DNA from: Candidatus Omnitrophota bacterium
GTDB taxonomy: Bacteria > Omnitrophota > Gorgyraeia > Duberdicusellales > Duberdicusellaceae
DNA length: 64,000 nt
Direction: 5' to 3'
NCBI GenBank assembly: GCA_016932855.1
Contig: JAFGCB010000029.1
Location: forward strand, 2,547 to 66,546
Positions 15,103 to 61,147 of the stretch are shown here, piece by piece. Each line of letters starts with the position of its first letter. Positions within the stretch are counted from its first letter, which is position 1. A program made the translations under genes and the position numbers. Under the pieces are notes generated by a model. The model worked only from the letters and a program-made list of their open reading frames with translations. It did not search any database and was not told where the DNA came from.

Positions 15103-15107
15103 CTTGA

Positions 15108-17964: not shown

Positions 17965-17980
17965 TTTAAAACTTAGGGAT

Positions 17981-19276: not shown

Positions 19277-19278
19277 GT

Positions 19279-21171: not shown

Positions 21172-21770
21172 TCCATCCCTTCTCTTTCAATAAGGACCTG
21201 GTTTCTTAAGACTTTTTTTACCTTAAAGCCTTCGATTGTCTCGCCTGCGCCTAAAAGATGAGTTTTGCCGCTTTTGGTGTATTCAATCATTGCCTGAGGG
21301 TTATCCGACCAGATTACGCCCACAAGCTTTAAGCTTTTAATCGTTTCCGAGGTATCAAGGCTTATCTTTTTCTCCGGGGCCGCAGGGATAAAGGTAAATA
21401 TATTTCTTTTTCTGGCTTGAGCTTGAATTTCGTTTATATTAGTTTCCAGAGATATTTTTTTTGTTTGATCTACTGCCGCAATAGCGGAGTTTTCCTGGAT
21501 TTGGGCGAAGCGGTCTTCGAGATCAGAGCTTATCTTCATAAAATCGAAAACAGCCAAGATTGTAAAAGCTACGCATAAGCCGAGAAGTATTCTATTTACC
21601 GTCTCCAGTTTAAGGGATTTAAAAGCATTTTTAAGACCTTCTAATGAGCCGCTAAGTCCTGCAAACAAAGATACCTTTCCTTTAGTTACCGCAGAGGGGC
21701 TTCGTTTGGCAACCGTAGGGTCTTCCAGGATTTTTAGTAATTTTTCTTCAGGGGTGCTTTTATCTTTCAT
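21156..21770 (-). CDS. Bitopic inner-membrane protein, GspB/ExeB- or PilP/GspC-like secretin-assembly partner (tentative).
   Basis: Cytoplasmic N-terminus, single TM (ILLGLCVAFTILAVFDF), periplasmic beta-rich C-terminus. Sits between the ExeA-like ATPase and the secretin. Confidence 0.4.
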   Translation of the reverse strand: MKDKSTPEEKLLKILEDPTVAKRSPSAVTKGKVSLFAGLSGSLEGLKNAFKSLKLETVNRILLGLCVAFTILAVFDFMKISSDLEDRFAQIQENSAIAAVDQTKKISLETNINEIQAQARKRNIFTFIPAAPEKKISLDTSETIKSLKLVGVIWSDNPQAMIEYTKSGKTHLLGAGETIEGFKVKKVLRNQVLIEREGMEWTIE

Positions 21771-21772
21771 GT

Positions 21773-22615
21773 CTAAATAATTTGCGACTGGGAAATCTTT
21801 ACTTCCTGGGAAATTAACTCCCGGATTATATCCACGGTAACTGCGGGCTTATTGTGCATAATAAGTTCTTTTAATCCGCTGTGGCAAATCATGGCTATTC
21901 TTCGGGGATAGCCTTGGGTATAGTGATAAATCTCTCTAATCGCATCATCGGTAAAAAGGCCGGGCCCGGAAAGGTAACCCGCGGTTTTTAGCCTGAATTC
22001 TATCATCGCTCTTGTTCCCTGCAGGTCAAGAGGGTTTATCACGTACTTTAAGCTTAGACGGTCCATAAGGTTTTTAATTTCCCGTATTCTGGGAAGAAGC
22101 TCCATTTGGGAAAGAAGCACAAGTTGCAGCAGTTTGTATTCATTGGTTTCGTAATTTAAGAGGACCCGCAGGATTTCTAAAGAAAGAGAGTTTAGTTTTT
22201 GGGCTTCGTCGATTAATAATACTATTGTCTTTTTTTCTTCGACGCCGGTTCTGAAAAGGTAGTCTTTTATCGCTTCTTTAAAGTCCAGTATGTTAGGATT
22301 GGGTTTTTGAAGCGTTATCTTAAAGGTCCTGATTAGAGAATCTAAAAACAGCTCTTCCGTTTCAAAGGTAGGGTCGAGAATCATGTGAAAGATAATATCA
22401 TCCCTTTCTTTAAGCATACGGAAAAGCTTCCGGGAAAGCGTGGTCTTTCCGGTTCCCACATCTCCCAGTATAAGACTTAATCCTCTTTTAAGGCGGATTT
22501 CTATCATGAGCCTCATCAAGGCCGCGTGGTGTTCCTTGGAGTCGTAGAAAAATTCCGGGTCAGGACTTGTTGAAAAGGGCTCTTTGTCCAGGCCCAAGAG
22601 TTTATAGTAGCTCAT
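21773..22615 (-). CDS. ExeA/GspA/MshM-family AAA+ ATPase (AAA_22).
   Basis: LLGLDKEPFSTSPDPEFFYDSKEHHAALMRLMIEI...LILGDVGTGKTTLSRKL matches the GspA/ExeA N-terminal region and Walker A. Walker B is LLIDEAQ. Confidence 0.8.
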   Translation of the reverse strand: MSYYKLLGLDKEPFSTSPDPEFFYDSKEHHAALMRLMIEIRLKRGLSLILGDVGTGKTTLSRKLFRMLKERDDIIFHMILDPTFETEELFLDSLIRTFKITLQKPNPNILDFKEAIKDYLFRTGVEEKKTIVLLIDEAQKLNSLSLEILRVLLNYETNEYKLLQLVLLSQMELLPRIREIKNLMDRLSLKYVINPLDLQGTRAMIEFRLKTAGYLSGPGLFTDDAIREIYHYTQGYPRRIAMICHSGLKELIMHNKPAVTVDIIRELISQEVKISQSQII

Positions 22616-23925: not shown

Positions 23926-26817
23926 TCAAAATGAGATGTGCAGTTCGCCGCTTAGGGAGTTTGCGGAATAATCTTCTTGGCCTAAGCGGGTTTCGTAATC
24001 AAGATTTATTGAAACAGCTTCTGTAAGCTCCATTGTTAGTCCGCAGCCGAGAAGGGCGAAATTGCGATCGGGCTCATCGGTTGTTATTTGGAAGATTCCT
24101 CTTCCCGGTCCTAAATTTGCATCTATAGTTCGGCTGTTATTAAGAAATTCGTGCTGAAAGGAGGCATGCAATCTGGGAATAACCGTTTTATCGCTTATGT
24201 TCATAATGTGCTTAGCCTGTATTCCTAATCCTAGCTGAAGAGATTCACTGGTCTGGTCGGGAAATCGTATATTAAGAGCGCCGGCGCCGGTTTCTGTGAA
24301 GCTATCTATCCAGAGCCTGCTGTATTGCAAGGTGAGTTTAGGTCCGAGATCCAGATTTTTTATCTCGAAATCATTGCCGGTTTCAAGAAACAGGCTGAGT
24401 TGATGCCCTAAGGTATCTGCTTTGGCTCCTCTTTGCAGTCCTCCAAAGTTAATATTGCGACGGGTATCATAGAGGTTTGCTGTATAGCTAATAGCGGTAT
24501 GGAAATAAAAATCATCGTTATAATATATTCCATAGCCACCGAAAGGTATGCTGTCTACATAAACCTTTCCGTTGGAGCCGTCAAGCATTGATTTTGTTCT
24601 GTTATACCCGGAGTACAGGCCGACAAGGGTTTTGTCTGTAAGTCTATAATCCAACCCGGCAGTTAATCCTGCTGTTGTGTAATTAAAACCGGCTTGAGCA
24701 TTGGTGGATTCCTGATCTCCTAGCCCGCCGTTTGCATTTATAAATAGTCCGAGATTACCGGCCTCTTGGGCTTTAGGGTCGCTGCGGGGAAGGAATTTAG
24801 CCCAGTCATCTCCTTCGTAGGCAAGAAGAACGCCGTTATATATGTCTCCGGCGAATAACCCGCTGCGGCTGTTATAAGACACTCCTCTACTTAAGCCGCT
24901 GCGAATAGTTTCCATTTGATTGCCGAGGCTGGTGAATCCCAAGGCTGCATTATTCAAGGATATTGTGGAGATGCTATTTAATTTTTCAGGCGATATCTGG
25001 GCGTAGGCATTTTTAACCGCGGCGTTAGTTGCCAGGGCGTCAATAGCTGTTTTTACTGTTGCTAGATCACCGGCGGCTGTAGGAAGTATTTTTTGCATAA
25101 TAGCTGCGACTTTCTGTTCGTTGGGTGCCAGAGAGGCTTTGAGAGTAGCGTTGTTGTAGTCGCGGGTAGCTACTAAGTCCAAGTCATTACCGTCAATATC
25201 AGGTTGCCATATTATTGTTGGTGTGATCTGGGTTTGCAGGTCAGTAAATGAGCCTGTGATTCCTCCCGCGGTCTGGATTACGCCGTTGAGCGTATCGCCG
25301 GGGGAATAATTTCCCGAAGTTATCGTTTTAAGCGTTCCGTTAAGACCGGCGGTGCTTGCGCCGATAATTTTGTCGAAATTGAGCAATGAGGAGATCTCAA
25401 GTTCAAGGATTCCGCTTGAAGACTGTGAGAAGGACCCGCCGTTGAGATTTAAAGTGCCTATGGAATTTCCGGGCTTAATTGTTCCGGAGTTTAAGATGCT
25501 TTTAATTGTTCCGGTTCCCGCTAGAATACCCGCCGGCTGCACTGTTGCGGCTGTATTTGAGTTATTGCCTAGAATATTAAGGGTGCCTTCGTTTATTATC
25601 GTAGCTCCTGTGTAATCATTATCGGCAGTAAAAGTTAATTTACCCTTTCCGCTTTTGACTACATCGCCGGTTCCGTCTATCTGATTTGTATAGGCGCCGT
25701 CTATAGTTTGATTAAATTCAAGGGTTGCATCGTTAGTGATGCCGCTGGTTAAGGTAGTGGTATTTCCCTGCAAGGTTCCGTTTATGACTAATGTGTGAAG
25801 CACTTGCCAGTCTACAGGGGTAAGGTTTTCGGTTCCATAGAGTTTAAGCCACAAACTTTCATCGTCAATAGTTACTACACCATAGCCGTAATGATAAGGA
25901 ATGCTTGCGCCGGGGTCACTGTCATGATAAAGGTCCGAAACTTCATAATCAGCGTAGCCGCTGTTATATACTCCGTCAAAATTATGTGAGGGAGCTCCCC
26001 CGCTTCCTATAATTAATTGGTAAAAATCCTGGCTGCCGCCAAGAGCAGGATTTTTTTCATATACCCGGCCAAGAGCAATGAAATGGTCATGGCCGCAAAA
26101 GTAAAGTTTGCCGCCATAGTCACCGGCATTACGAAGGCTAGTTAAAAAAGCATCTCTTGAAGCCTGGTCGCCTGCCAGGCAGTCTACGTGGTTAGCTTGG
26201 TATGCGGGTTCGTGTCCGAAAGCAATGATATGTCCGCTGCTAGTAATAAGTTGTTGGTCTACCCACTCTTGGTTGGTCTGGTCAGCATTAATATATTGGT
26301 CGATAGCCAAAATAAAAGCATTATTATATTCAAAGCTGTAAGTCATTCCTACTTCACTATTGCCTCCCCCGCCGGAAGCGGTAGTGGGTCCATTCTGAGG
26401 CAGGGTGCTGAATTTATTCCTCCATAAGGCTTCGGTGTCGATACCAGTTTCAGAATTGTCGAGTTCGTGGTTGCCCCGGACAGGATAGTAGGTAAGCCCT
26501 GCTTCGCCAGAGCCAACAAGGCTTAGACCTCTGTTAGAGACAGTATCTTTAAATGTCTGAAATTGACTCTCCAGTGTAGGCCAGCCAGCGTCTTCGCCGT
26601 ATACGTAATCGCCTACAAAAAGAACGAATTCGCAGTCTCTATTATTTACAATGTCATTGGTAATTGCAGTTACTGCGGTTGTATTTACGCCTGTAGGGTC
26701 GCCTCCTCCTGTAGCGCGTGTATCACCGGTTACGGCGAAATTCCATTCCTCGGCTTTTGCTAAGTTTCCGGATAATGTGATAGTTAACGAGATAATGAGA
26801 TAGCAGATTTTTTTCAT
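23926..26817 (-). CDS. Type Va autotransporter with an N-terminal calcineurin-like metallophosphoesterase passenger.
   Basis: Signal peptide. GDTRA...VLFVGDYVY...VRGNHE...GHDH phosphoesterase motifs. Autotransporter-associated beta-strand repeats (TFTADNDYTGATIINEGTLNILG). C-terminal beta-barrel ending ...GELHISF. Confidence 0.8.
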   Translation of the reverse strand: MKKICYLIISLTITLSGNLAKAEEWNFAVTGDTRATGGGDPTGVNTTAVTAITNDIVNNRDCEFVLFVGDYVYGEDAGWPTLESQFQTFKDTVSNRGLSLVGSGEAGLTYYPVRGNHELDNSETGIDTEALWRNKFSTLPQNGPTTASGGGGNSEVGMTYSFEYNNAFILAIDQYINADQTNQEWVDQQLITSSGHIIAFGHEPAYQANHVDCLAGDQASRDAFLTSLRNAGDYGGKLYFCGHDHFIALGRVYEKNPALGGSQDFYQLIIGSGGAPSHNFDGVYNSGYADYEVSDLYHDSDPGASIPYHYGYGVVTIDDESLWLKLYGTENLTPVDWQVLHTLVINGTLQGNTTTLTSGITNDATLEFNQTIDGAYTNQIDGTGDVVKSGKGKLTFTADNDYTGATIINEGTLNILGNNSNTAATVQPAGILAGTGTIKSILNSGTIKPGNSIGTLNLNGGSFSQSSSGILELEISSLLNFDKIIGASTAGLNGTLKTITSGNYSPGDTLNGVIQTAGGITGSFTDLQTQITPTIIWQPDIDGNDLDLVATRDYNNATLKASLAPNEQKVAAIMQKILPTAAGDLATVKTAIDALATNAAVKNAYAQISPEKLNSISTISLNNAALGFTSLGNQMETIRSGLSRGVSYNSRSGLFAGDIYNGVLLAYEGDDWAKFLPRSDPKAQEAGNLGLFINANGGLGDQESTNAQAGFNYTTAGLTAGLDYRLTDKTLVGLYSGYNRTKSMLDGSNGKVYVDSIPFGGYGIYYNDDFYFHTAISYTANLYDTRRNINFGGLQRGAKADTLGHQLSLFLETGNDFEIKNLDLGPKLTLQYSRLWIDSFTETGAGALNIRFPDQTSESLQLGLGIQAKHIMNISDKTVIPRLHASFQHEFLNNSRTIDANLGPGRGIFQITTDEPDRNFALLGCGLTMELTEAVSINLDYETRLGQEDYSANSLSGELHISF

Positions 26818-33339: not shown

Positions 33340-34146
33340 CTATTCGTTATAAATATGGATATCGTTTTGGGGGAAAGGAATGGTAATTCCGTTCTTTTCC
33401 AGCTCTAGCTTACCCTTTTCCAAGGTGTCAAAGTAGACATTCCAGTAGTCGCCGGGCTTTACCCAAGGCCGGCAGACAAGATTAACGCTACTGTCGCCTA
33501 ATTCGGATACAGCAACAACCGGCTTAGGTTCTTTAAGTACGCGGGGGTCGGCTGATACCACCTTTTCCAGGGTTTCTTTGGCGGCTTTTATATTATCGCT
33601 ATACGAGATTCCAAAGGTCAAATCGATTCTTCGTTTTTCTATAGCCGAGAAATTGGAAATAATTCCGCCGGTAATTTGAGCATTAGGAACCACAATGCGT
33701 CTATTGTCGGGGTGATTCAGTATGGTATTAAAAATCTGGATTTCTACTACAGTGCCCATGGTGCCGGCCGCATCGATGAAATCACCGACTTTAAAGGGTT
33801 TAAAAATGATAAGCATAACACCGGCAGCAAAGTTAGCAAGGGAGCCTTGCAGGGCAAGTCCGACAGCTAAACCCGCAGCGCCGATTACCGCGATAAAAGA
33901 AGTGGTTTGTATTCCTAATTTCCCCAAGGCCGCGATGACTACAAAGAGTAAAAGGGCTACATAGCACATATGTTTGCTAAAGGCGGCTAGTGTTTTATCA
34001 GTGTTTGCCTTAATCATAATTCTTTCAATAGTCCGTGAGATTATCCCGGCTAGCCATTTACCGATTATAAAGATAACAACAGCGGCAAGCAGATTTATTC
34101 CGTAGGCCATAAGGTAGGTGTAGAATTTAGACAGTAAATCTTCCAT
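33340..34146 (-). CDS. mscS: Small-conductance mechanosensitive channel (MscS family).
   Basis: GAAGLAVGLALQGSLANFAAGVMLIIFKPFKVGDFI...TVVEIQIFNTIL matches the MscS pore-lining TM3 and beta domain. Confidence 0.75.
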   Translation of the reverse strand: MEDLLSKFYTYLMAYGINLLAAVVIFIIGKWLAGIISRTIERIMIKANTDKTLAAFSKHMCYVALLLFVVIAALGKLGIQTTSFIAVIGAAGLAVGLALQGSLANFAAGVMLIIFKPFKVGDFIDAAGTMGTVVEIQIFNTILNHPDNRRIVVPNAQITGGIISNFSAIEKRRIDLTFGISYSDNIKAAKETLEKVVSADPRVLKEPKPVVAVSELGDSSVNLVCRPWVKPGDYWNVYFDTLEKGKLELEKNGITIPFPQNDIHIYNE

Positions 34147-34448
34147 AAAAACCTCCTTTTTTCATATAGATAGCTTGTATAGGCTCCCGAAGCACTCTTT
34201 TAAGACAATATTTATCTACTCAAATCGCGATGTTGTTATTTAAAGTGTATATGATACCTTGAAAAGGGCTCTAGGTCAATTTTAAAATTTAGGCCTTTTA
34301 AGGGGAGATTTCTCGGCAAATTTTTTACGAAAAACAGGCGAAAAATAGCTATTTTTTCCTAATAAAAGCCCAAAGAAAACATTTTCAAAAAAAAATCGGC
34401 CTACCCCTTGAAAAAACGGGGAAAATATGTTATCCTTTCATTCTAAAA

Positions 34449-34493
34449 ACCGGATTTACCACAGGAAAAAAGGTAGATCCGGTCTTTTTTTTT
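34449..34493 (+). terminator. Strong stem-loop (12-bp stem with one G.U wobble, loop ACAGGAAAAAA) followed by T9, in a divergent intergenic region.
   Basis: accggatttacc-acaggaaaaaa-ggtagatccggt-cttttttttt. A near-identical hairpin with the same loop recurs at 35839-35874. Confidence 0.55.
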
Positions 34494-34571
34494 ACAGGAA
34501 AATTTCAAATTAATTATGCAAGATTATCAAGTGAAGAACCGAGTTTATAGCCAATAACTGATGGTTGATGA

Positions 34572-34615
34572 TTTTGCATTTTCAAACCAGCCGCAAAGCG
34601 GCTTAAGGGAAGATA
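34572..34615 (+). promoter_or_regulatory. Conserved 5' leader module (copy 1): ttttgcattttcaaacc + small hairpin gccgcAAAgcggc + RBS.
   Basis: Near-identical to 35956-35997 and related to 36895-36931. Precedes the ATG of a secreted-protein gene. Confidence 0.5.
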
Positions 34616-34658
34616 GATGGGTAGTTTTAATTACAGGGAGAATGAAAGGAGGTTCGGT

Positions 34659-35624
34659 ATGAGAAAGGCTATTTACTTAAGCTTAGGAGTAATGCTCCTT
34701 CTTCAGGTGCCGGGTTTTGCGCAGGTGGGAGTAAAAAGCGATCAACCTAATGTAATCGGCGCGGCCGGTAATCAGACCATGAATGCAATGTCGCTAGAGA
34801 GTCTTAGCAATGACCAGCTTTATGCGCTGGCGAAACTTTTCTTAGTAAGTTCCAATGGGATGCAGCAAGATGGTCAATTTGGGAAGGCAATTGGGCAAAT
34901 TGACGCAGCTTTGCTTGCACTCGGTAAGATTGACGAAGCATCTTTAGATAAAGACCAGAAGTTAGAGATTGCTACTTTCAGGAAAGGCGCCGAGATTCAA
35001 AAGCTGGAAATACTCTCGGCCCAAGCAGCCGAAGCCGATGATTACGATACCGCTATTGCCTATCAAAATCAGATAGTTTCTTTAGCCAACGCGTTTATTG
35101 GCGAAGTCAGTGACAAGAGGGTTAAGGCAGAATTTACCTATACCAGAAACATGGCAGAGATTTACAAATTGACTTTAGCGGCAGGCAAGGCAGCGAAAGC
35201 TGAGGATTATGCAGGCGCCGCGGCTTTGCAAGCTCAGATAGCAGTACTTGCTGGTAAGTTTGCTGGCGAGGCGGACAGCAAGGCTCAAAAGGCCAATTAT
35301 AATTTGCAGAAACACAACGCCGAGATCACGCAAATGAATTTAACAGCTGTCCAGTTAGGTAAGGACAATAAGGTAAACGCATTGATAGACGTTTACTTGG
35401 GAGAAATTGCTAAGATTCAGCAGTTCATGGTTACTAATCCTGATGGGAAAAAGAACTATGAAATAATGCTGGATAATGCTAAATCAGGCCTTCAGGATGT
35501 TACTTTTAGCGCTCTTAACGTTGAATCTGCGGTAGACACTTTGAATTTGATTCTTCCCAAGGTAGCACCGCATATTGACCCGGTTATTTTGCAGGCAATA
35601 AAACTTCAAGCAGGAATCGAATAG
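34659..35624 (+). CDS. Secreted protein with two UVR-like motifs (unknown function).
   Basis: Start revised to ATG 34659 (AGGAGG at -9). Signal peptide MRKAIYLSLGVMLLLQVPGFAQ. DYDTAIAYQNQIVSL and DYAGAAALQAQIAVL resemble the UvrB/UvrC UVR motif. Confidence 0.55.
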   Translation: MRKAIYLSLGVMLLLQVPGFAQVGVKSDQPNVIGAAGNQTMNAMSLESLSNDQLYALAKLFLVSSNGMQQDGQFGKAIGQIDAALLALGKIDEASLDKDQKLEIATFRKGAEIQKLEILSAQAAEADDYDTAIAYQNQIVSLANAFIGEVSDKRVKAEFTYTRNMAEIYKLTLAAGKAAKAEDYAGAAALQAQIAVLAGKFAGEADSKAQKANYNLQKHNAEITQMNLTAVQLGKDNKVNALIDVYLGEIAKIQQFMVTNPDGKKNYEIMLDNAKSGLQDVTFSALNVESAVDTLNLILPKVAPHIDPVILQAIKLQAGIE

Positions 35625-35666
35625 TAATTCTTCCATGATCTTTGCAGATTAACGATTAAAATAAAA

Positions 35667-35700
35667 AACCGCCCTTTGTTAAGGGAGGGGCGGTTTTTTA
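35667..35700 (+). terminator. Intrinsic terminator after the 34659..35624 gene.
   Basis: aaccgccctttgttaagggaggggcggtttttt. Confidence 0.6.
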
Positions 35701-35838
35701 TTTTAAGTCTAGTAAAAGTTAAAATTAACAATTAACAATGCAAAATTAGCAATTCCAGTAATTAATAGTTGTTAATCGTTGTCTTTGTAGAAATGCTTTC
35801 TCCCCTTTTAAAATCAGGAAATAGTTCTTTAAATATAA

Positions 35839-35874
35839 GCCGGATTTAACACAGGAAAAAAGGTAAATCCGGTC
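35839..35874 (+). promoter_or_regulatory. Second copy of the conserved hairpin (loop ACAGGAAAAAA identical to copy at 34449).
   Basis: gccggatttaac-acaggaaaaaa-ggtaaatccggtc, followed by a T-rich tract that is interrupted. Confidence 0.5.
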
Positions 35875-35955
35875 TCTTTATTTATAGGGAAAAGTTAAAT
35901 TTAGCAATGAGTAATTAACAATTCAAAATGCTAATTGATAACTGATAATTGATAG

Positions 35956-35997
35956 TTTTGCATTTTCAAACCAGCCGCAAAGCGGCGTAATGGGAGG
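35956..35997 (+). promoter_or_regulatory. Conserved 5' leader module (copy 2).
   Basis: ttttgcattttcaaaccagccgcaaagcggcgtaatgggagg immediately 5' of the ATG at 36003. Upstream AATTGATAA-type AT-rich repeats. Confidence 0.5.
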
Positions 35998-36002
35998 TTT
36001 TT

Positions 36003-36845
36003 ATGAGAAAGGCGTTGATTCTGGCAATAGGGTTAGGGTTCATTATGCAAGGCGTAAGTTTCGCGCAGACGCCCCTTGGTAAGCCTTTGCCTGAAATATC
36101 CCAAGCAGGTTCTTCATTTAATTCCGGTCCGGAAATGCTTCAGGAGGTGCTTACTCCGGATAGCTTGTATTTAGTCCAGTTAGGTGTGGGTTCTCATAGC
36201 GTTGATCATCTAGAGTGCGTTTGGCCTATGGGCACACAAGTAAGTACCGGAAAAGGCGGGGTAGCAGTCAGCTTATTTTACGATGAGGTTCCACATCCTA
36301 TTACTGGCGCGGTAACTACCCAGGAGCGTTTGCAGGTCGATGCAGTAATTTTTGATGGTAAGGGTAAGCCCAGAGTCAGCTTTAATGAATGGGTAAGAAT
36401 CGAGTCTAAGGAAGGAAAGACTCAGGTGATAAGTGTATATACCGCGGCCCAGTATTTACAGAAAAAAGGTAAAGAAGCAGAGCCAGTGGCCCAGATTTTT
36501 ATAATGAGTAAAAAAGGGCAAGATATCGTAGAATTTGTCGTAACCGGTTTGACTTCAGGCCCTAATCCCGAAGCCTTAGTCGTACAGGCGAAACTAAACA
36601 GAGAAGTTGGAAAGATGGGAGTTTCGGAATTTTATGATATCGTAAGCGTAGAGCCAGGGTCGCATAATGTAATAGAAGGAGATGCTATTCAGGTTATGTA
36701 TCAAGAGAATGGTTTGCCGATGGACGCAAGGCTTCATCGCACCGGCGAGGATCATTATGTTCCCCTTCTTTATGCGCCTGGCATAACATTCGACGGAACA
36801 ACTCCTTACGAGAATTTTAAGTTACCTAGCAAGATAATGGAATAG
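36003..36845 (+). CDS. Secreted hypothetical protein (280 aa).
   Basis: Signal peptide MRKALILAIGLGFIMQGVSFAQ, similar to the signal peptide of the upstream gene. Mature part unrelated. Confidence 0.55.
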   Translation: MRKALILAIGLGFIMQGVSFAQTPLGKPLPEISQAGSSFNSGPEMLQEVLTPDSLYLVQLGVGSHSVDHLECVWPMGTQVSTGKGGVAVSLFYDEVPHPITGAVTTQERLQVDAVIFDGKGKPRVSFNEWVRIESKEGKTQVISVYTAAQYLQKKGKEAEPVAQIFIMSKKGQDIVEFVVTGLTSGPNPEALVVQAKLNREVGKMGVSEFYDIVSVEPGSHNVIEGDAIQVMYQENGLPMDARLHRTGEDHYVPLLYAPGITFDGTTPYENFKLPSKIME

Positions 36846-36934
36846 TCTTTGACGCAGATGGCCGCAGATTGATTACTTAATTTTGAATTGATAATTTGAT
36901 ATTTTCAAATACGCTGCGTAGTGGGAGGCATTTT

Positions 36935-37150
36935 GTGAAAGAGAAAAAATATGTAGTTGAGCAAGCTGTATATGGAGAGTTGTTTCAGCTTATGCTTTTT
37001 AAATTTCCTGTCTTGATGAAAGCAGTTATGGATAGAGGTAACTCTGCTTTTGAGCAAAGTACATATGGTTGGGTAAAAGATTACCTTCCTCCGCTCTACC
37101 GTAAGGCATTGGAATCGCAAACACCGGGATTAAACGAAACAAAGTATTGA
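36935..37150 (+). CDS. Small hypothetical protein (~71 aa) with a diverged copy of the same leader.
   Basis: GTG start at 36935 after GGGAGG. Leader ttgatattttcaaatacgctgcgtagtgggaggc parallels copies 1 and 2. Confidence 0.4.
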   Translation: MKEKKYVVEQAVYGELFQLMLFKFPVLMKAVMDRGNSAFEQSTYGWVKDYLPPLYRKALESQTPGLNETKY

Positions 37151-37205
37151 TTTTTAATTGATAATTGTTAATTGATAATTTTGTATTTTCCAAGTCTACT
37201 GATTT

Positions 37206-37715
37206 CTATTTTAACTTAGATTCCATGACCTTAATGTCTTCTTTTATTGCTTCAAGGTCTTCTTCGTGTTCGATTTCGTCTTCAAGGATTTTTAAGGCCA
37301 TATCATAGGTTACCGGGTCTTTTCCCTGGGTGTAATCCATTATTTTCTTATACTGGGTAATCGCGCACTGCTCCCCTTTTATATTCTGTTCAAGTAAGAC
37401 CCTTACATCAGGGTCATCCGGACGGTCATAACCGCAATTTGTTTGAGCTATCCACTCTTTTGGTTCCAGGAGAGGTTTTCCTCCCAGCTGGATAATCCGG
37501 TCAGCAACCATTCCTGCATGGCGCAGTTCATCAGCTGAGTGCTGGGTAAGCTCTGCTACTACTGCTTCTTTGGGCATTCCTACTGCGACTTTTGCTCCAA
37601 TCCAGTACTGGTAATAAGCCAGCCATTCATCAGCAAAAGCTTTATTGAGCATTTTGATTAATTCATTTACCTTTACCCCGAATGACTCCAGGATTTCTCT
37701 TCCCCTTGTCCCCAT
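37206..37715 (-). CDS. bfr: Bacterioferritin (ferritin-like di-iron protein).
   Basis: LNKAFADEWLAYYQYW...ELRHAGMVADRIIQLGG...ILEDEIEHEEDL aligns with Bfr ligand helices. Confidence 0.7.
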   Translation of the reverse strand: MGTRGREILESFGVKVNELIKMLNKAFADEWLAYYQYWIGAKVAVGMPKEAVVAELTQHSADELRHAGMVADRIIQLGGKPLLEPKEWIAQTNCGYDRPDDPDVRVLLEQNIKGEQCAITQYKKIMDYTQGKDPVTYDMALKILEDEIEHEEDLEAIKEDIKVMESKLK

Positions 37716-37999: not shown

Positions 38000-39271
38000 T
38001 CAGGATATGGATTTTACAAAAAGAGCGGTTAAAAAACCGGCTAAGGTTGACAGGCCCACCACAGCCCCGCCTTGTTCGAATGCTTCAGGAAGCATTGTTT
38101 CGGCAATCATTACAAGCATTGCCCCGGCTGCCATGCCTTCCAGTATTGCAATGCCGTTTAGGTGAAGATTCTGCAAGAATATGTTTCCGATAAAAGCTCC
38201 CAGGGCAGTCATAAGAGTTATAGAGCTCCACATCAAAAGAATCTTAAGCCCTGTATATTTTTGGTTTTTCATGATTACCGAGCTGGACATAGCTTCCGGA
38301 AGATTTGCCAGAAAAACTCCGGCTATAAGAGCCCAGGGAATAACCGTTTCCTTAGTAGCTATACCGATTACCAGGGATTCGGGTATTCCGTCTAAAAGTA
38401 TGCCTAACCAGATCCCTATGCCGGCCTGGCCGCCGGCTTTGGCAGCGTTTTCGATTTCAAGGCTGGTAGGAGTAAGATCCTGGCTTTTCAAAGAAGAGAC
38501 AGCTTCCTCTTTCCATTGCCTGGCTAGCTCCTTCGGTACAACTGATCTTTTACCAAGTTCGTCCCCTCTTTTGATAAGTAAATTTTCAAAGGATTTTTTA
38601 AGCTCCGGCGAGGCTTTAAGAAGTGCATTAAAATCGTTTTTAGAAATAAGAAAAAGAGTAGATTTTTTTGTGGCAATTGCCCGGGCGGTTCTGGGAGCGT
38701 TAGTTAAGAGGGCCATTTCTCCGAAAGTATCACCGCTGGTCCCTCTTGCTATGGATTTACCTTCTTTGAAAATTTCTACCTGGCCTTGGTCAATAATGTA
38801 AAGTGCTTCGGCCGGCGAATTTTCTTTAAAAATAAGCTCATTTTCCTCGAATACCCGTTCCTCAACAAGGGTAGCGAGCTTGGCAATATTTCTTGCCGGT
38901 AAAGCCTGTAATACAGGCACCTCGGCAAGGCGTTGAAGTATTTTCTCCGCTTTTTTTAGTTTCATTCTGGTGAGTTGCCGGATAACTGTCGCTCCTTTAC
39001 GAAAAAAGGCTCCCATGGAATTAAGCCCGTGATTTAGGAGCTCATAAAGTATGCCGCCGAGCAAGCACCCCAGGGCTAAAGGCATAAAGCCCACCAGATG
39101 AAAGGAGTGGGCAACGATTTCTATGGTAAGGGCAAAAAGCAGCGCTCCACCTCCAAAAGCCATAAAAGCCGAGGTGATTTTTGCATTTGGCTTAGCCGCC
39201 AGCCCTATAGCCGAACCTATAGGAAGGGAAACCGCGGAGAGAAAACCTACAAATAAAGCAATCAGGCTCAT
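38000..39271 (-). CDS. ZIP (ZupT-like) family metal transporter with a cyclic-nucleotide-binding domain inserted in the central cytoplasmic loop.
   Basis: TM regions with ZIP-like LLDGIPESLVIGIA, FLANLPEAM and C-terminal MLPEAFEQGGAVVGL. The insert has a cNMP-binding fold (FKENSPAEALYIIDQGQVEI...FGEMALLTNAPRTARAIA). Confidence 0.6.
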   Translation of the reverse strand: MSLIALFVGFLSAVSLPIGSAIGLAAKPNAKITSAFMAFGGGALLFALTIEIVAHSFHLVGFMPLALGCLLGGILYELLNHGLNSMGAFFRKGATVIRQLTRMKLKKAEKILQRLAEVPVLQALPARNIAKLATLVEERVFEENELIFKENSPAEALYIIDQGQVEIFKEGKSIARGTSGDTFGEMALLTNAPRTARAIATKKSTLFLISKNDFNALLKASPELKKSFENLLIKRGDELGKRSVVPKELARQWKEEAVSSLKSQDLTPTSLEIENAAKAGGQAGIGIWLGILLDGIPESLVIGIATKETVIPWALIAGVFLANLPEAMSSSVIMKNQKYTGLKILLMWSSITLMTALGAFIGNIFLQNLHLNGIAILEGMAAGAMLVMIAETMLPEAFEQGGAVVGLSTLAGFLTALFVKSIS

Positions 39272-41290: not shown

Positions 41291-43558
41291 TTATTCTAAG
41301 CCGACTGCTTTATATATAGAAATTGGTTCTGTCTTGCCTTTTACTGAAATAGGCTCAAGTTTTTCGACTTTTACTTCGTCTTTAACCTGTTCGTAGGTAG
41401 AGTTGCTTATAATAATTTCGTTCTTTGCCGCGGCTGAACATAGCCTGGCTGCAAGGTTTACGTTATCCCCTATTACAGTATAATCCATCCGTTTTGAGGA
41501 GCCCATATTTCCTACAACAACATCACCGCTGTTTATGCCGATTCCTATCTGCAGGGGAGTTTTACCTTCTTCTATCCACTTGACTTGAAGTTTTTTTAGT
41601 TCCTCTTGCATTTCAATAGCTGTACGCACGGCCATAACCGCGTGATTTCTGATGTGCAGTTCGCTGGGGGCTCCCCAGAAAGCCATAAGTTCGTCTCCCA
41701 CAAATTTATCTAAGGTTCCGTTGTATTTAAAGACTACGTTTACCAGATTGTCAAGAATTTCATTGAGCATTGCTACGACTTCCTCCGGCTGATGGGATTC
41801 GGAAAAGCTGGTAAATCCTCTTACATCGGCGAAGAGAATGCTTAAGCTGCGTTTTTGCCCGCCTAATTTAAGCTTGGAGGGGTCGTTTATTAATTCATTT
41901 ATTACTTCCTGGGAAAGGTAGAAGCTGAAGGCTTGCTTTATCCAGAGTTTTTCTCTTTCTTCGGTAAAATAGCGAAAACCTATAATTCCGGAGAATCCGA
42001 AAATAACTATTCCTAAAGGTCCGACCAAATCTACCCAGAGCCCCAGTTTAGCAAAGGCCAGAAGAATCGACAGAAAATAACCACCGGCGTAAAAAATCGA
42101 GAGAATCAGGCTCCTCCATAGCCCCAGTAAAGCGCAGAGGCCGATAATCAGGGCAGTAAGAAAAAAAACAGCAGTATTTAAAAAGAAAGGAGCTTTAAAG
42201 AGGAATTTTTCAGTGAGGATTGTATTAATTAAGTTTGAGTGGGTCCCGACCATGGGGTAGCCGGTCTGCAGCGGAATAGGCGCTAAATCCTGGGTTCCGG
42301 TTGCGGTAAGGCCGACGATGCACACTTTGTCTTTTACCATTCCTGTAAGTTTCTCTTTTAGCTTGAGCTCTGAGTTTTTGAGGTAGTTAATTTCGGATTG
42401 GTTTAGGCCGGATTTTTCTTTTTCGCCGGCTATATAGGAGGATAATCGAGCCCTTATATCGTTAAGCTGTATTATAGAAGCGTAAGGCAGGTGCTTGAAG
42501 CAATCGCCCCAGCGGCCGGACCAGTTTACAAGCATGCAGCCCTGGCTGTCTACCGGTATTGCTATATCTTTAATCCCGGAATCCAAGCTTGCTTTCTTAA
42601 GCACCACTCTATCAGGTTTAAAGTCTACTTTCTCCACAGCCAATAGGTCCATAAGGGCTGAAATTGAAAGCTGGGGCAGTATGCTTTCTTGCTGCTTTAC
42701 AAAGAGGGGCACTCTGCGCATGACTCCGTCCAGGTCAGCGTCAGCGTTAACAAACCCGCTTCCAGCCAGAACGTTTGCGTATTTTTCGATAGGAGGAACA
42801 AGGCGGTCGTATCGTTTTGTGTAGGGCCAGGAGTCAGAGGAATATTTTTTTGCGAATTTTTTAATAAAAGACAAGGCTAGTTTATAGCTTTGGATATTTT
42901 CTCTTACATAGCTTTCTTCCTCGGCAAATAGGTACCAGTTTTTTTCCTCTTCTAGGCTGGTTAGAAGTTCTTCCAGGGATATATTAGGCTTTTCGAAAAC
43001 CGCTTCTTCTATGGCTTTATCCATGAGGTAGTGTTTTGTTGCAAGGAATTTTTCTTCAAGTACCCGGGGGCTTACCTTAAGAGAGCTTGCTGCCTCTTCC
43101 AGGGACATGGTGATATCATTTTTTAAGAGCATTTCCAGTTCTTTAAAAGATTGAGTTTGTCTTTCGGCAAAGTAAAAAGCAAGATAAGTTTTTTCTGAAT
43201 TTGATATTGCTTCTTTAAAAAGTTCATCGTCCTGGATTTTTTCGCTTAACGTTTCGGTAAAAAGAATATCCATAATAATCTGTTTGGCCCCGCATTCAGT
43301 AAGAATATTAACTAAATCGGCATGGTATCTTCGCGGCCAGGGCCATCTGCCGAGTTTTGCAAGGCTGACATCATCTATATCAATATGGATTAGGGGCGTT
43401 TTTGGTTTATTCCGGGGGCTTAAGGTAAAGCGTAAATCAAGGGCTTTAAGTTCAAGAATTTGGTAGGTTTTCGTAGGGCAAAGCAAAAGGAAGATAATAC
43501 TTAAGAGGAAGGTTATGGTCCAGCCGACAATTAATTTTTTCAGATTTTTTTTCTGCAC
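41291..43558 (-). CDS. CHASE2 sensor domain - class III adenylate/guanylate cyclase.
   Basis: N-terminal TM + CHASE2 region, multi-TM segment, C-terminal cyclase core LSILFADVRGFTSFSE...KFVGDELMAFWGAP...GDVVVGNMGS. Confidence 0.8.
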   Translation of the reverse strand: MQKKNLKKLIVGWTITFLLSIIFLLLCPTKTYQILELKALDLRFTLSPRNKPKTPLIHIDIDDVSLAKLGRWPWPRRYHADLVNILTECGAKQIIMDILFTETLSEKIQDDELFKEAISNSEKTYLAFYFAERQTQSFKELEMLLKNDITMSLEEAASSLKVSPRVLEEKFLATKHYLMDKAIEEAVFEKPNISLEELLTSLEEEKNWYLFAEEESYVRENIQSYKLALSFIKKFAKKYSSDSWPYTKRYDRLVPPIEKYANVLAGSGFVNADADLDGVMRRVPLFVKQQESILPQLSISALMDLLAVEKVDFKPDRVVLKKASLDSGIKDIAIPVDSQGCMLVNWSGRWGDCFKHLPYASIIQLNDIRARLSSYIAGEKEKSGLNQSEINYLKNSELKLKEKLTGMVKDKVCIVGLTATGTQDLAPIPLQTGYPMVGTHSNLINTILTEKFLFKAPFFLNTAVFFLTALIIGLCALLGLWRSLILSIFYAGGYFLSILLAFAKLGLWVDLVGPLGIVIFGFSGIIGFRYFTEEREKLWIKQAFSFYLSQEVINELINDPSKLKLGGQKRSLSILFADVRGFTSFSESHQPEEVVAMLNEILDNLVNVVFKYNGTLDKFVGDELMAFWGAPSELHIRNHAVMAVRTAIEMQEELKKLQVKWIEEGKTPLQIGIGINSGDVVVGNMGSSKRMDYTVIGDNVNLAARLCSAAAKNEIIISNSTYEQVKDEVKVEKLEPISVKGKTEPISIYKAVGLE

Positions 43559-44808: not shown

Positions 44809-45597
44809 CTAAGGCATGCTGTCGGTGCAGCCAATCGACTCTTCTTGCTTTAGCTCGTCAGTTAAGTCTTTAATCTCGTCAAGATCCTTTATTTTTTCCT
44901 GTACGTCATTTGCCTTTTTGAATTTATCGGACCGGCCGGCTTTCTTATCTTTTCTTGGTTTCTGTTTGGTCCGTTCGGTTACTTCTTCTTTAACGTCATT
45001 CCAGCGGTTCATTTCTCTATCGGTAAGGCCCATTAGTTCGCTGGGCCGTTTAAAGCGTTCAATCATAGTCTTGAATCCTTCATTGAGAATAATTTCTGTT
45101 ATGAGGTTTTTAGCTTCATCAAAAGCTTTTACAAAGACAGAATCTTCATAGCAGGCTACTTCATCTTGGTTTTCCTGGCTGTCTACGCTCCAGCCTGTTC
45201 CTCTGACTCCGGCTACCGCGCTGGGCGTGGAAACTTCGAAAGTAAGGCCTGATTGCACGGTCGCTATATCGGCGTAGATTTTACCGTGCGAAAGATCGAG
45301 CCGGTTAATCTGGCCCGGGGAGGTAGAATCAAGAAGGAGAAGTGTTTTTTCCTCTAGCCGGATAAGGTTTCTTTTGCCGTCGTCAACAGCGATGTCGGCT
45401 TTTGAATTTCTGGCTGTTCGTACGCTGTCCCCGATATCAAGAGGCATGCCGGTTTTTGCTCTTTTCCACACACCTTCTTTAGAATATTGCAGTTCGACAT
45501 TTCCCTTAGTGTAGACGATTTCGGCTGCTTTTAATGTGGCAATAAAGAAAAGCCCGATAAAAAGCACCATTAGAAGGACTAGAAAACTTTTTTTCAT
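44809..45597 (-). CDS. Periplasmic FecR-domain protein with a charged C-terminal tail.
   Basis: Signal peptide. KGNVELQ...WKRAKTGMPLDIGDSVRTARNSKADIAVDDG matches the FecR domain. Confidence 0.55.
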   Translation of the reverse strand: MKKSFLVLLMVLFIGLFFIATLKAAEIVYTKGNVELQYSKEGVWKRAKTGMPLDIGDSVRTARNSKADIAVDDGKRNLIRLEEKTLLLLDSTSPGQINRLDLSHGKIYADIATVQSGLTFEVSTPSAVAGVRGTGWSVDSQENQDEVACYEDSVFVKAFDEAKNLITEIILNEGFKTMIERFKRPSELMGLTDREMNRWNDVKEEVTERTKQKPRKDKKAGRSDKFKKANDVQEKIKDLDEIKDLTDELKQEESIGCTDSMP

Positions 45598-45746
45598 GAT
45601 TCTGTCTCCTTTTTTGCTATGCCGAATTTAAATATTATACCCTGTCCAGGTTTGGGTATGTACTAAGTCTATGATATAAAACAAGTTTTTGTCTGTCAAC
45701 AAAAAAAACCAAAAAATATGAAGGTTTTTTAAACCTCCGGATGCGT

Positions 45747-46421
45747 TCAGTCTTTATTATTGATTTTAGACGAAAAGTAATTGATAAAAAGAAGGATAAA
45801 TAATATAAAAATAATCAGCTGAAATATTACTACCACTTGGCCCAGGCCGGGCTTGGGGTAATATTCACCGAATCCCAGAGTAGTGTTGGTGACAAAGCTG
45901 AAATATACGACCGAAAGCGCAGGCAGTTTTTCATTTAAAAGGTCAAGGCCTAAATAGATGATTGAAAAATCCAAAACCACCTCGATATAATTTAGAAAAA
46001 GAAATAGTAACGAGCGCCTGTATGATAGGGTAGCCGGATAGACGTCAGACAAAAATATTAAACTTAAGATATTAAATATCGTTTCACTCAGCAAATAGAC
46101 GATAAGGATGATTGCGACAGGGTAGCGGTACAGGCCTGACGCGATTACAAAAACCGGCAAAAATAATTTAAGTATAATGTAAAATTCGACAGAAAGTTTT
46201 CTTGCAAGGCTTGAGAACTTGCCGGATATGTTTTTTACCAGCAGAGTCGGGTAGATAAAGTGGATGAGGCACAAAAATATGCGAAATATTCTCTCAAGGC
46301 CGTAGGTTTTGTCGTTCCAAATTTCTTTTAAGGAGCGCAACTGCTGAGTATAGGCGTTTATAGTTTTTTCGTTGCTTAGGGCCTCATATGATACGATTAT
46401 TTTTTTAAAGAATTTAAGCAT
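45747..46421 (-). CDS. Ion-channel family membrane protein (2TM pore-loop type) with an atypical TLGFGE selectivity filter.
   Basis: YFSFVTNTTLGFGEYYPKPGLGQVVVIFQLIIFILF parallels the K+-channel pore helix/filter (TVGYGD) and inner helix. N-terminal extension with extra TMs. Confidence 0.5.
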   Translation of the reverse strand: MLKFFKKIIVSYEALSNEKTINAYTQQLRSLKEIWNDKTYGLERIFRIFLCLIHFIYPTLLVKNISGKFSSLARKLSVEFYIILKLFLPVFVIASGLYRYPVAIILIVYLLSETIFNILSLIFLSDVYPATLSYRRSLLFLFLNYIEVVLDFSIIYLGLDLLNEKLPALSVVYFSFVTNTTLGFGEYYPKPGLGQVVVIFQLIIFILFILLFINYFSSKINNKD

Positions 46422-46470
46422 TTTTCCCCCCGCTGTTTACGATCTTTAGAAATCAGCGATTATTGCGTCT

Positions 46471-48216
46471 TTAAAAATGAAAGTCGTACATGACTTGAAC
46501 CCAGTTATGCTTTCGTTTATTGTCGGAAGGAGGCGCGCCCAAAGGCCAGCCGATATCATATCTTATACTAAAGTCGTTTATTTTAAAACGGAAACCGCAC
46601 CCGGCAGATTTTAAATTCGCTCTTCTTGCCTCATTGTTTCTGGGTTTTCTTACCCAAACATAGCCATAGTCATAAATTGCAAAAAGCTGCAAGGCTTTAT
46701 GCCATTTTGTCTCGGTAAAAGGAACATTCCAATTTTTCGGGATGATATAGGGCGGAAATAATAAACCTGCATTCACGCTGCAACCCGAATCTCCCAACAG
46801 CTCGGCCCGGGGGTAACCCCGGTTATCAGAGATGCCGTGCACACCGCCGATGCTGAACCTGTTAGCGCCGGGTAGGACATCGGTAGAGATCTCAAATTGG
46901 GGCTTCAGCAGAAGTTGAAGGTCGCCAAAGAGTTTTTGTCTGCGGGCTATGTATATACGATTATATACCCAATTACCGGTCATGCCAGGCATGCAGGCGC
47001 GTTCATCGATATCATGGCGTAAGCCTTGCCAGATATCCGGGATACTGATCTCCATATCGCTGGAAATAATCGTACGTCCATAATCATCAGTCGTATCAAA
47101 ATTGAAATGCGAGTATACGGCGCGTACTCTTTCCCGGCACATATACTCACGCATTACAAACATATTAACATCTTTATATATAAAACCCAAAGCAGCGCTG
47201 AGGTCGGTTTTCTCTTCTTCGATAAAGTGGTAATGAAGAAGAAACCAGGTTTTATAACTCCTTTTCTCCATAAGGAATAGTCTTTTTTTTCCGCAGTAAT
47301 GTTCTTCTTTAACCAAACCATAAAAATCAAATTTCAACCTTTCGCCTATAGGCAGGGTATAGTACATAATTGCTATATCTTGGTCTCGTGAAGGCCCCCT
47401 GCGATAATCGTAGAAAATTAAGGAATCATCGTGTCCGGTGAAATTATTATGCATGCCGACTAGCCTGTAGCGCCTGTATTCTGTGCTGGGGGAGTTATAA
47501 TTATTGAATTCATATATAAGATGTATGGGTAGGCGGTCTTTTACTTTAAGGACAATATCGGTAAATCCCGGCTTTTGTCCGGGTTTAACTATTACTTTTA
47601 TCTTTCGGTCAGGATGTTTGTTGAGTTTATGTATGTATTTGCGCAATATATGACCGTTGAAGGGGTCCGCTTCTTTTAAGCCAATCCTTTCCCTGATAAA
47701 ATCTTCTTTAAAATGTTTGTTGCCTTCTATCGTTATTTCTCCTACAAATCCTTCTCGGACCTTGAGTTCCAACTCCTCTTTATCAAATTCCTGTATGGGG
47801 ACAAATGCCCGGGATGTAGGATAGCCTTCTTTATAATAGAGATTTGAAATCTGGTCGGCAATTTCCTGCATTTGTTTTAAGGAAAGTTCTTTATTTTCAT
47901 AGGGCTTAGTAATTTCTCTGACTTCTTCTTGGGAGATAAAAGTTACACCCTTTACGTTAATTCTTTTGATGAAGATTCTTTCTCCGGGAAGCGAAGGAAG
48001 TTTCTCTTCTTCTTTTACAATCTGCTCGATTACTATTTCAGCAGGCGTTGGTTCTCTTTCTTGGAGTTTCTTTTCCATCTCAATAGCCATCTGGGATTCG
48101 TCGTCACCAAACTGAGCAATAAGCGATATAGGCCGACAGATAAGGAAATTTAAAAAGACCAGAACAAAGACTAATTTTTTAATTATATTTGTGCTATTTG
48201 TGGCAAACATAACCAT
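46471..48216 (-). CDS. TpsB/ShlB/FhaC-family outer-membrane transporter (POTRA + beta-barrel).
   Basis: ERIFIKRINVKGVTFISQEEVREITKPYENKELSLKQMQEIADQISNLYYKEGYPTSRAFVPIQEF...LELKVREG is a POTRA_2-type domain. C-terminal beta-barrel ends ...VMYDFHF. Confidence 0.7.
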   Translation of the reverse strand: MVMFATNSTNIIKKLVFVLVFLNFLICRPISLIAQFGDDESQMAIEMEKKLQEREPTPAEIVIEQIVKEEEKLPSLPGERIFIKRINVKGVTFISQEEVREITKPYENKELSLKQMQEIADQISNLYYKEGYPTSRAFVPIQEFDKEELELKVREGFVGEITIEGNKHFKEDFIRERIGLKEADPFNGHILRKYIHKLNKHPDRKIKVIVKPGQKPGFTDIVLKVKDRLPIHLIYEFNNYNSPSTEYRRYRLVGMHNNFTGHDDSLIFYDYRRGPSRDQDIAIMYYTLPIGERLKFDFYGLVKEEHYCGKKRLFLMEKRSYKTWFLLHYHFIEEEKTDLSAALGFIYKDVNMFVMREYMCRERVRAVYSHFNFDTTDDYGRTIISSDMEISIPDIWQGLRHDIDERACMPGMTGNWVYNRIYIARRQKLFGDLQLLLKPQFEISTDVLPGANRFSIGGVHGISDNRGYPRAELLGDSGCSVNAGLLFPPYIIPKNWNVPFTETKWHKALQLFAIYDYGYVWVRKPRNNEARRANLKSAGCGFRFKINDFSIRYDIGWPLGAPPSDNKRKHNWVQVMYDFHF

Positions 48217-61146: not shown

Positions 61147-61147
61147 C

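Follow-up and report, generated by a model that had tools for sequence, protein, structure and literature searches.

Two adjacent plus-strand genes in an Omnitrophota genome share an upstream region and signal-peptide codons in front of mature proteins that show no similarity to each other. The stretch of DNA analyzed (64,000 nucleotides, hereafter the window) is part of a 70.9-kb contig of a Candidatus Omnitrophica (Omnitrophota) metagenome-assembled genome (MAG). Almost every gene of the window is on the minus strand. The two genes belong to a plus-strand island of 3 kb flanked by an MscS channel gene (33340–34146, minus) and a ferritin-like gene (37206–37715, minus). The island holds three open reading frames (ORFs), called genes 1, 2, and 3 here (Table 1), and its G+C content is similar to that of its surroundings. 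Scored by the codon usage of the window, all three ORFs are positive in the annotated frame only, which indicates host-like codons, and each is preceded by a strong Shine-Dalgarno (SD) sequence. Gene 3 lacks a signal peptide and matched no family. The inverted repeat behind gene 1 folds at −29.9 kcal/mol (z −7.05).

Table 1. Features of the plus-strand island, with positions counted from the first nucleotide of the window
Feature	Positions	Strand	Description
Module 1 block A	34444–34511	+	Stem 34448–34459/34471–34482; loop ACAGGAAAAAA; T9 34484–34492; second ACAGGAAAA motif
D1-1	34548–34586	+	CCAATAA CTGATGG TTGATGA TTTTGCA TTTTCAA; degenerate; 79% to reference copy, core exact
Leader 1, 31-nt identical stretch	34572–34602	+	GCCGC-AAA-GCGGC stem-loop 34590–34602
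Module 1-specific insertion, 42 nt	34617–34658	+	In-frame upstream ATG 34617; SD AAAGGAGG 34645–34652
Gene 1	34659–35624	+	321 aa; MBN2120302.1; JW734_04540; putative signal peptide 34659–34724 (MRKAIYLSLGVMLLLQVPGFAQ)
Putative bidirectional intrinsic terminator behind gene 1	35656–35706		Perfect 19-bp inverted repeat with A/T tracts
D1-5	35725–35760	−	TTGCTAA TTTTGCA TTGTTAA TTGTTAA; 3 core mismatches; 21/26 to D1-2 around TTTTGCAT (by hand)
Module 2 block A	35834–35901	+	Stem 35838–35849/35861–35872; same loop; T-rich tail CTCTTTATTTAT
D1-2	from 35932	+	TTGATAA CTGATAA TTGATAG TTTTGCA TTTTCAA; contains TGaTAGTTT
D1-2 plus leader 2	35932–35997	+	Stem-loop 35974–35986; SD GGGAGG 35992–35997
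Gene 2	36003–36845	+	280 aa; MBN2120303.1; JW734_04545; putative signal peptide 36003–36068 (MRKALILAIGLGFIMQGVSFAQ)
D1-3	from 36871	+	TTGATAATTTGATATTTTCAAA; 67% to reference copy, 2 core mismatches
D1-3 plus leader 3	36871–36934	+	Palindrome TACGCTGCGTA 36910–36920; SD GGGAGG 36923–36928; no hairpin A
Gene 3	36935–37150	+	71 aa; GTG start
D1-4	37155–37193	+	TTGATAA TTGTTAA TTGATAA TTTTGTA TTTTCCA; 87% to reference copy; best-preserved array

The duplicated upstream module

Modules 1 and 2 (34444–34724 and 35834–36068) align with 71% identity over 243 columns, an alignment that leaves out the 42-nt insertion of module 1. Identity is 84% in the 68-nt hairpin block (block A), 88% in the 59 nt of D1 plus leader, and 58% in the 66 nt of signal-peptide codons. 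It is 18% in the 50 nt upstream of the hairpin and 27%, the random level, over the 102 nt with which the mature coding parts begin. Neither the pre-hairpin regions nor the mature coding regions align locally any better than shuffled controls do, and BLASTP similarity between the gene 1 and gene 2 proteins is confined to the N-terminus. On these grounds the module starts about 5 nt before the hairpin and ends near the signal-peptide cleavage site. An initial annotation of this DNA had described a duplicated promoter-leader-signal-peptide unit in front of unrelated mature proteins. Its account of the shared elements upstream of genes 1 and 2 was borne out throughout, the elements being commoner than chance, as was the lack of relationship between the mature proteins.

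Since the noncoding interior aligns and the adjacent coding sequence stands at random identity, the mature parts are not diverged paralogues of the same age. The pattern is that of a 5′ module joined to non-homologous cargo. A plain tandem duplication of whole genes is excluded because homology stops at the signal-peptide boundary. A simple local tandem duplication, the fallback offered by the initial annotation, is thus rejected in its whole-gene form; it agrees with the lack of further copies or conservation in the searches made. The longest perfect run between the modules is 31 nt (P=0.0008 under homogeneous 71% identity). Such uneven conservation indicates constraint or gene conversion on the leader. 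Full modules number two and D1 copies five, all of them inside the island.

The 33-nt hairpin pattern CCGGATTTAMCACAGGAAAAAAGGTARATCCGG has exactly two matches in the window (34450–34482 and 35840–35872), with 0 expected from shuffles. Hairpin A1 (module 1) folds at −18.5 kcal/mol (z −4.7) and hairpin A2 (module 2) at −12.0 kcal/mol (z −2.9), and the stem base is CCGG/CCGG. A U tract follows directly in both, as C and T9 after A1 (34483–34492) and as the weaker CTCTTTATTTAT after A2. On the minus strand, the folds are −19.3 and −13.4 kcal/mol, respectively, and A1 is followed by U5. The stems had been said to differ at one position. Three differences were found, two of which keep pairing (A-U to G·U and U·G to U-A) and one of which gives an A·G mismatch. 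The 11-nt loops are identical, as claimed, though this is unremarkable because the 68-nt block is 84% identical overall (P ~0.15 for an 11/11 match). The distance from hairpin to D1 is 92–98 nt. Rfam gave no gathering-level match in the island; at E ≤5, matches to the hairpin reached at most 14 bits (noise), and none lay over D1 or the leader. A small ORF conserved across the hairpin block was rejected by eye because the frames of copy 2 are interrupted. Inside gene 2, ACAGAAAAAAGGTAAA (36457–36473) is a near-copy of the loop plus 3′ arm of hairpin A2 (ACAGGAAAAAAGGTAAA), with a 13-nt exact match; the likeness is probably due to chance.

D1 is a 39-nt AT-rich family of five contiguous 7-bp units ending in TTTTGYATTTTC. 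Four direct copies start at 34548, 35932, 36871, and 37155, and the core of one inverted copy matches at 35734–35752. With up to 3 mismatches, the 19-nt core TTGATRRTTTTGYATTTTC has five matches in the 64-kb window against 0.3 expected, all within 34.5–37.2 kb. D1-1, D1-2, and D1-3 precede genes 1, 2, and 3, respectively. The D1 ends lie 26–33 nt before the start codons at 34617, 36003, and 36935, with or without hairpin A. D1-4 corresponds to repeats reported earlier at 37150–37200 and is a full fourth copy; it has no plus-strand gene downstream and points straight at the convergent ferritin gene's stop codon (37206). D1-5 faces the bidirectional inverted repeat and the 3′ end of gene 1. TRF detects period-7 arrays at 35932–35954 and 37155–37180. 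TTGATAA-like heptads occur at 2.9–5.5 per 100 nt in three of the four intergenic regions of the island and at 1.4 in the region between the MscS gene and gene 1. The other intergenic regions of the window have 0–1.2 per 100 nt, an island enrichment of 3–10 fold. Read from the sequence, TGnTAnTTT is present in four of the five D1 copies.

The D1 units are direct repeats with a 7-bp period, in contrast to the inverted-repeat boxes of Fur, PerR, and Zur type. The best D1 match to the Fur box (10/14) is equalled by 64 sites in the window. For the Fur 19-mer, the best island site (13/19) lies inside gene 1, outside D1, and 25 sites in the window reach that score. D1 is at background for PerR and Zur, and the one high PerR score of the island (12/14, 36499) falls inside gene 2. 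A sigma-54 promoter was rejected by eye, the GG-N10-GC spacing being off by one in D1-1 and GG being missing from the other copies. The consensus of Bacteroidetes-type TAnnTTTG/−33 and of sigma-B/F-like promoters was likewise not found by eye. Between D1-5 and hairpin A2, TTAATAGTTGTTAA (35762–35775) is a near-perfect palindrome and the only 11/12 match in the window to TTAACA-NN-TGTTAA.

The sequence TTTTGCATTTTCAAACC occurs exactly twice, at 34572 and 35956, within the 31-nt perfect run, which also includes GCCGCAAAGCGGC. The insertion that follows in module 1 brings a new, strong SD sequence (AAAGGAGG) that serves the gene 1 ATG at 34659. The diverged third leader claimed for gene 3 stands in part. 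D1-3 is there, and a DNA palindrome (TACGC-T-GCGTA) occupies the place of the stem-loop, but the fold test gave no stable RNA hairpin and hairpin A is missing.

Both putative signal peptides are 22 aa long and share the ends MRKA...FAQ. They had been called near-identical, an overstatement given that 10/22 residues are identical, with 58% identity at the nucleotide level. Read from the sequence, the N-termini have MRK, a hydrophobic core, and then G/S-F-A↓Q, and look like Sec type-I signal peptides. The gene 1 protein returned only itself from 5.8e9 protein clusters, the one library searched with it. For the mature part of gene 2, self-hits were the only hits among 5.8e9 clusters and 1.84e9 representatives, the latter read exhaustively by HMMER. 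Neither protein has a Pfam or PHROG match, bar a sub-threshold UVR motif in gene 1, and both lack internal repeats. The AF2 single-sequence model of gene 1 is an all-helical repeat with pLDDT 72, rising above 80 for residues ~21–210, and has only weak TPR-like fold matches (E ≥0.017). The mature part of gene 1 is, by this model, a putative helical-repeat, TPR-like orphan. The model of gene 2 is uninformative (pLDDT 33).

The sequence is reproduced by Logan contigs of an independent assembly (SRR13394437), which reach about 1 kb past the window. The match is exact for contigs L001 and L002, and contig L028 is colinear. All three have one end at the shared 31-mer, where a k=31 graph (k assumed) would be expected to break. 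L002 ends at 35748, inside the inverted D1-5, and positions 35700–35960 have no 20-mer repeated elsewhere in the window. Low coverage, strain heterogeneity or rearrangement, or further genomic copies are possible causes of this break.

Function of the module and competing explanations

We propose, with moderate confidence, that the island carries a terminator-insulated promoter/operator, leader, and signal-peptide module of about 240 nt that was locally duplicated onto non-homologous cargo. The outcome would be two co-regulated, Sec-exported orphan proteins. At the 5′ edge, the 12-bp hairpin and T tract would form a factor-independent terminator that insulates the module from incoming transcription. 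The AT-rich stretch, ending in three TTGATAA-like units, TTTTGYA, and TTTTCMA, would hold the gene's own promoter, most likely of the extended −10 type (TGnTAnTTT) without a good −35. The heptad array would act as an operator bound cooperatively by a repressor or activator, and is probably a repressor operator that overlaps the extended −10-like promoter. Transcription would start in TTTTCAAAC, a few nt before the GC stem-loop. In the resulting 35–40-nt leader, the GC-rich 5-bp stem-loop likely stabilizes the 5′ end of the mRNA, and a strong SD sequence comes next. The predicted 22-aa Sec type-I signal peptide, ending FA↓Q, would close the module. A D1 copy with promoter/operator function only would serve gene 3. 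D1-4 and D1-5 may be promoters of short antisense RNAs or decayed remnants. If D1 is a promoter, the D1-4 RNA would be antisense to the 3′ end of the ferritin gene, and D1-5 would give an ~80-nt RNA antisense to the 3′ untranslated region (UTR) of gene 1. We infer the terminator function, the position of promoter and transcription start, and the roles of operator and leader from the DNA sequence.

Gene 2 lies behind two putative terminators, the −29.9 kcal/mol inverted repeat and hairpin A2, and its promoter should therefore lie in 35875–35990. The main conserved sequence in this interval is D1 plus leader, together with ~27 nt directly after the hairpin. The same terminator logic would place the gene 1 promoter downstream of hairpin A1. 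Other genes of the window have canonical TTGACA-17-TATAAT-type promoters, which makes a sigma-70-like −10 reading of D1 reasonable. Stabilization of mRNA is an established role of 5′ stem-loops, and a start a few nt before the stem-loop would fit it.

Several observations weigh against this proposal. Intrinsic terminators typically have loops of 3–8 nt; the loop of hairpin A is 11 nt, and a consensus scan (loop ≤8) gave no call. No obvious transcript that the gene 1 hairpin could stop comes from upstream. D1 has no good −35, the critical A of the −10 is replaced in D1-1 (TGATTT), and different D1 copies score best as promoters in different registers. Compared with the Fur, PerR, Zur, FNR, CRP, PrfA, CodY, and ArcA consensus sequences, D1 does not rise above window background. 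Pfam scans found no regulator gene within ~7 kb of the island. With only two full copies, the conservation could reflect gene conversion and not selection, and no related sequence was found in the other genomes searched. A regulon with a dedicated sigma factor or RNA-binding regulator, as the initial annotation had suggested, is unsupported.

The searches beyond the window covered genomes, metagenomes, and viral contigs. In 185,579 representative genomes, the D1 22-mer gave 14 single matches in unrelated taxa. The scan did not return the window itself, so the source MAG lies outside that collection. JGI metagenomes had 0 matches to the loop plus D1 core and 0 to the hairpin with free inner stem. 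IMG/VR had 0 matches to the hairpin and leader patterns and three single matches to the D1 22-mer, presumed to be chance. The neighboring ferritin gene is 75–90% identical across Omnitrophota. The contigs of four closer ferritin homologues (80–90% protein identity) have other neighborhoods, with no synteny, no D1 core, and no hairpin loop. In related Omnitrophota (L019 1692–3755, L020, and L021), a FUR-family regulator gene lies two to three genes upstream of the ferritin orthologue, or the orthologue has genes for rubrerythrin, Msr, and desulfoferrodoxin as neighbors. The ferritin gene of the window lacks such an oxidative-stress context.

It is rather improbable that the module is a portable expression-and-export platform of this Omnitrophota lineage, copied genome-wide onto arbitrary or new ORFs. 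In that case one heptad-binding regulator would control a regulon of secreted proteins specific to the lineage, and the stand-alone copies would give antisense RNAs to neighbors such as the ferritin gene.

A functionless relic is somewhat unlikely. It would have arisen by local duplication or repeated gene conversion, with the hairpin as the terminator of an old upstream gene, the heptads as decayed slippage repeats, and orphan D1 copies as debris. The confinement of every copy to 3 kb, with none elsewhere in the 64 kb or in the public genome, metagenome, and viral collections scanned, agrees with such an origin, as does the lack of synteny and of the motif near ferritin genes of other Omnitrophota. 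D1-1 is visibly degraded, and D1-4 and D1-5 have no gene to serve. A relic does not account for the significantly uneven conservation (the 31-nt perfect run), and patchy gene conversion would itself need explanation. The constant distance from D1 to three start codons, and three ORFs with strong SD sequences and host-like codon usage, also argue against it.

Regulation by an attenuator or riboregulator is unlikely. Here the promoter would lie upstream of hairpin A, which would be a conditional terminator in a ~210-nt 5′ UTR. An RNA-binding protein or small RNA (sRNA), e.g., a CsrA-like GGA binder, would read the purine-rich ACAGGAAAA motifs in the loop and after the T tract and so control read-through. 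A promoter-like site, TTGAAA-17-TATCCT with a TG motif (34408–34436), does lie just upstream of hairpin A1. Homology between the modules starts only ~5 nt before the hairpin, which leaves no shared upstream promoter, and the best upstream −10-like hexamers of module 2 would start the RNA inside the stem. The loop is identical in both copies, ACAGGAAAA/ATAGGGAAAA recurs directly after the T tract, and the conserved block runs 27 nt beyond the hairpin; the loop identity, however, is expected at the P given above. No alternative antiterminator pairing is evident, Rfam gave no match, and D1-3 and D1-4 occur without a hairpin.

A recombination or mobile cassette is very unlikely. D1 or the hairpin would be the site of a site-specific recombinase or Y1 transposase acting by inversion, deletion, or cargo capture, as in a vsp/vpma-type shufflon, an integron-like array, or a REP/RAYT-like element. 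Direct and inverted D1 copies flank every island gene. Imperfect inverted repeats of 48 nt (35706–35753/37150–37197) bracket genes 2 and 3, but their 73% similarity would be expected of arrays built from the same heptad. The L002 contig ends in the inverted D1 with no window repeat to explain it. A gene with a Y1_Tnp domain lies 19 kb away, but the hairpin has two copies only and none beside that gene. The attC core motifs (RYYYAAC/GTTRRRY) are not both present, and every gene has its own complete upstream region, not one shared promoter. The mobile cassette suggested by the initial annotation found no backing: no recombinase, integrase, or transposase lies within ~7 kb, target duplications are absent, and neither the rest of the window nor the public collections scanned have further copies.

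Divergent sRNA genes are a highly improbable explanation, in which the complement of D1 (TTTGAAAAT...) would supply a −35 TTGAAA for a minus-strand RNA of ~90 nt that ends at hairpin A, with the loop CCUUUUUUCCUGU as seed: the minus-strand hairpins fold as stably as the plus-strand ones with U5 after A1, TTGAAA is present in D1-1, D1-2, and D1-3, a scan calls a minus-strand promoter at D1-3, and the hairpin-to-D1 distance is fixed, but no conserved −10 follows TTGAAA in D1-1, D1-2, or D1-4 (read from sequence), the tail that follows A2 on the minus strand is weak, the module is least conserved where the RNA body would lie, and hairpins are missing from D1-3 and D1-4.

Relation to known systems

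A shared promoter and leader unit on unrelated mature proteins is an already documented principle. The erp or "upstream homology box" (UHB) loci of Borrelia burgdorferi have a conserved promoter, operator, and leader peptide in front of mature proteins of many independent origins (PMC10016077). They are interpreted as one promoter/leader unit recombined onto diverse coding sequences that are co-regulated via operator-binding proteins (PMC10016077). Shared upstream DNA and signal peptide with non-homologous mature proteins are likewise found in the island. The erp loci, which encode lipoproteins, occupy allelic sites on multiple cp32 prophages and are present many times per cell; BpaB, BpuR, and EbfC are their operator proteins. 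The island, in contrast, is a single chromosomal 3-kb segment with two full copies, three partial copies, and predicted type I signal peptides. It shares no sequence similarity with erp, no regulator was identified, and a terminator-like hairpin belongs to the module. With no erp/UHB homology, no PHROG matches, and no viral-contig copies, the island is not cp32-like.

In the vsp loci of Mycoplasma bovis and the vpma loci of M. agalactiae, the 5′ UTR and signal-peptide regions are highly conserved and the remaining coding sequence is unrelated (PMC2268961). These loci serve phase variation of lipoproteins, in which one active promoter is moved by an adjacent Xer-type recombinase at conserved 5′ sites. 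In the island, by contrast, each gene has a whole upstream unit, and internal repeats are missing from the cargo. No adjacent recombinase of the shufflon kind was found, Pfam scans of the ORFs at 27.5–48.2 kb yielding no integrase or recombinase. Because the proteins have no homologues and there is no shared sequence and no prophage or recombinase association, the island is best regarded as an analogue of the erp and vsp/vpma loci, not a member.

The omega (RHH) repressor of pSM19035 binds cooperatively to unspaced 7-bp operator arrays, direct or inverted, that overlap promoters (PMC2441792). Its heptad is WATCACW, as against TTGWTAA in D1, and each D1 site has only three clear heptads. No gene for an RHH protein or any other DNA-binding protein was identified here, and the likeness is architectural only. 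Hairpin A resembles Rho-independent terminators that serve as upstream insulators in its GC-closed stem, strong folding energy, and directly following U tract. It differs from the usual ones in its 11-nt loop and its position at the 5′ edge of a duplicated unit, and copy 2 follows a stronger terminator.

Two further element types were rejected. For an integron attC site, hairpin A2 has ATTTAAC but GGTAAAT on the opposite arm, and A1 has ATTTACC. The hairpins stand upstream of promoter-like sequence and not behind each ORF, unlike an integron array. Among the ORFs scanned, at 15.3–22.6, 23.9–26.8, and 27.5–48.2 kb, there is no integrase. A REP/RAYT or IS200/IS605 element would have to rest on a hairpin that has 2 copies in 64 kb (≤3 mismatches), with none near the Y1_Tnp gene at 15272–16312.

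Genomic surroundings and significance

Other parts of the window encode secretion and signaling functions, among them several clustered envelope export systems. A stop-free frame of at least 5,034 aa (1–15117, minus) starts near 15105 with a signal-peptide-like MNRKKTLIILL... and is still open where the window begins. It is predicted to be the gene of a giant secreted or surface protein, a class reported for Omnitrophota. A c-di-GMP-I-GGC riboswitch (16362–16443, minus) scores 60.2 bits, above the gathering score. The gene directly downstream (15272–16312, minus) encodes 346 aa with an IS200-like Y1 transposase domain as sole Pfam match. Control of such a gene by c-di-GMP, as this arrangement suggests, would be unusual.

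Positions 17251–22615 (minus) encode a secretin, a protein like component C of type II secretion systems (T2SS), an ExeA-like AAA ATPase, and two TPR proteins. This secretin/T2SS-like cluster lies 12 kb from the island. An autotransporter with a metallophosphatase passenger is found at 23926–26817 (minus). A ShlB/FhaC-type two-partner-secretion transporter (46471–48216, minus) lies near a FecR-domain protein (region 44809–48216). A cargo link between the island proteins and these secretin, autotransporter, or two-partner-secretion genes, as proposed earlier, is unsupported; a Sec signal peptide would be compatible with the secretin/T2SS. Other minus-strand genes encode a cyclic-nucleotide-binding domain fused to a ZIP metal transporter (38000–39271) and a CHASE2 adenylate/guanylate cyclase (41291–43558). 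A partner-switching module of STAS, RsbW-like kinase, and SpoIIE phosphatase (59965–63530, minus) occupies the right end of the window.

If confined to the island, the duplication is a modest curiosity of local extent. A functional module would show how a member of a largely uncultivated bacterial phylum gives unrelated, lineage-specific ORFs a common set of signals for transcription, translation, and export. The stand-alone D1 copies that face the ferritin gene and gene 1 would then be candidate antisense promoters. We know of no regulatory sequences characterized in Omnitrophota, and a functional module would provide the first candidate promoter/operator and leader elements for the phylum. 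It would also represent a simple route from orphan genes to secreted proteins. Should the improbable portable platform prove true, it would constitute a means by which orphan secreted proteins are born and recruited.

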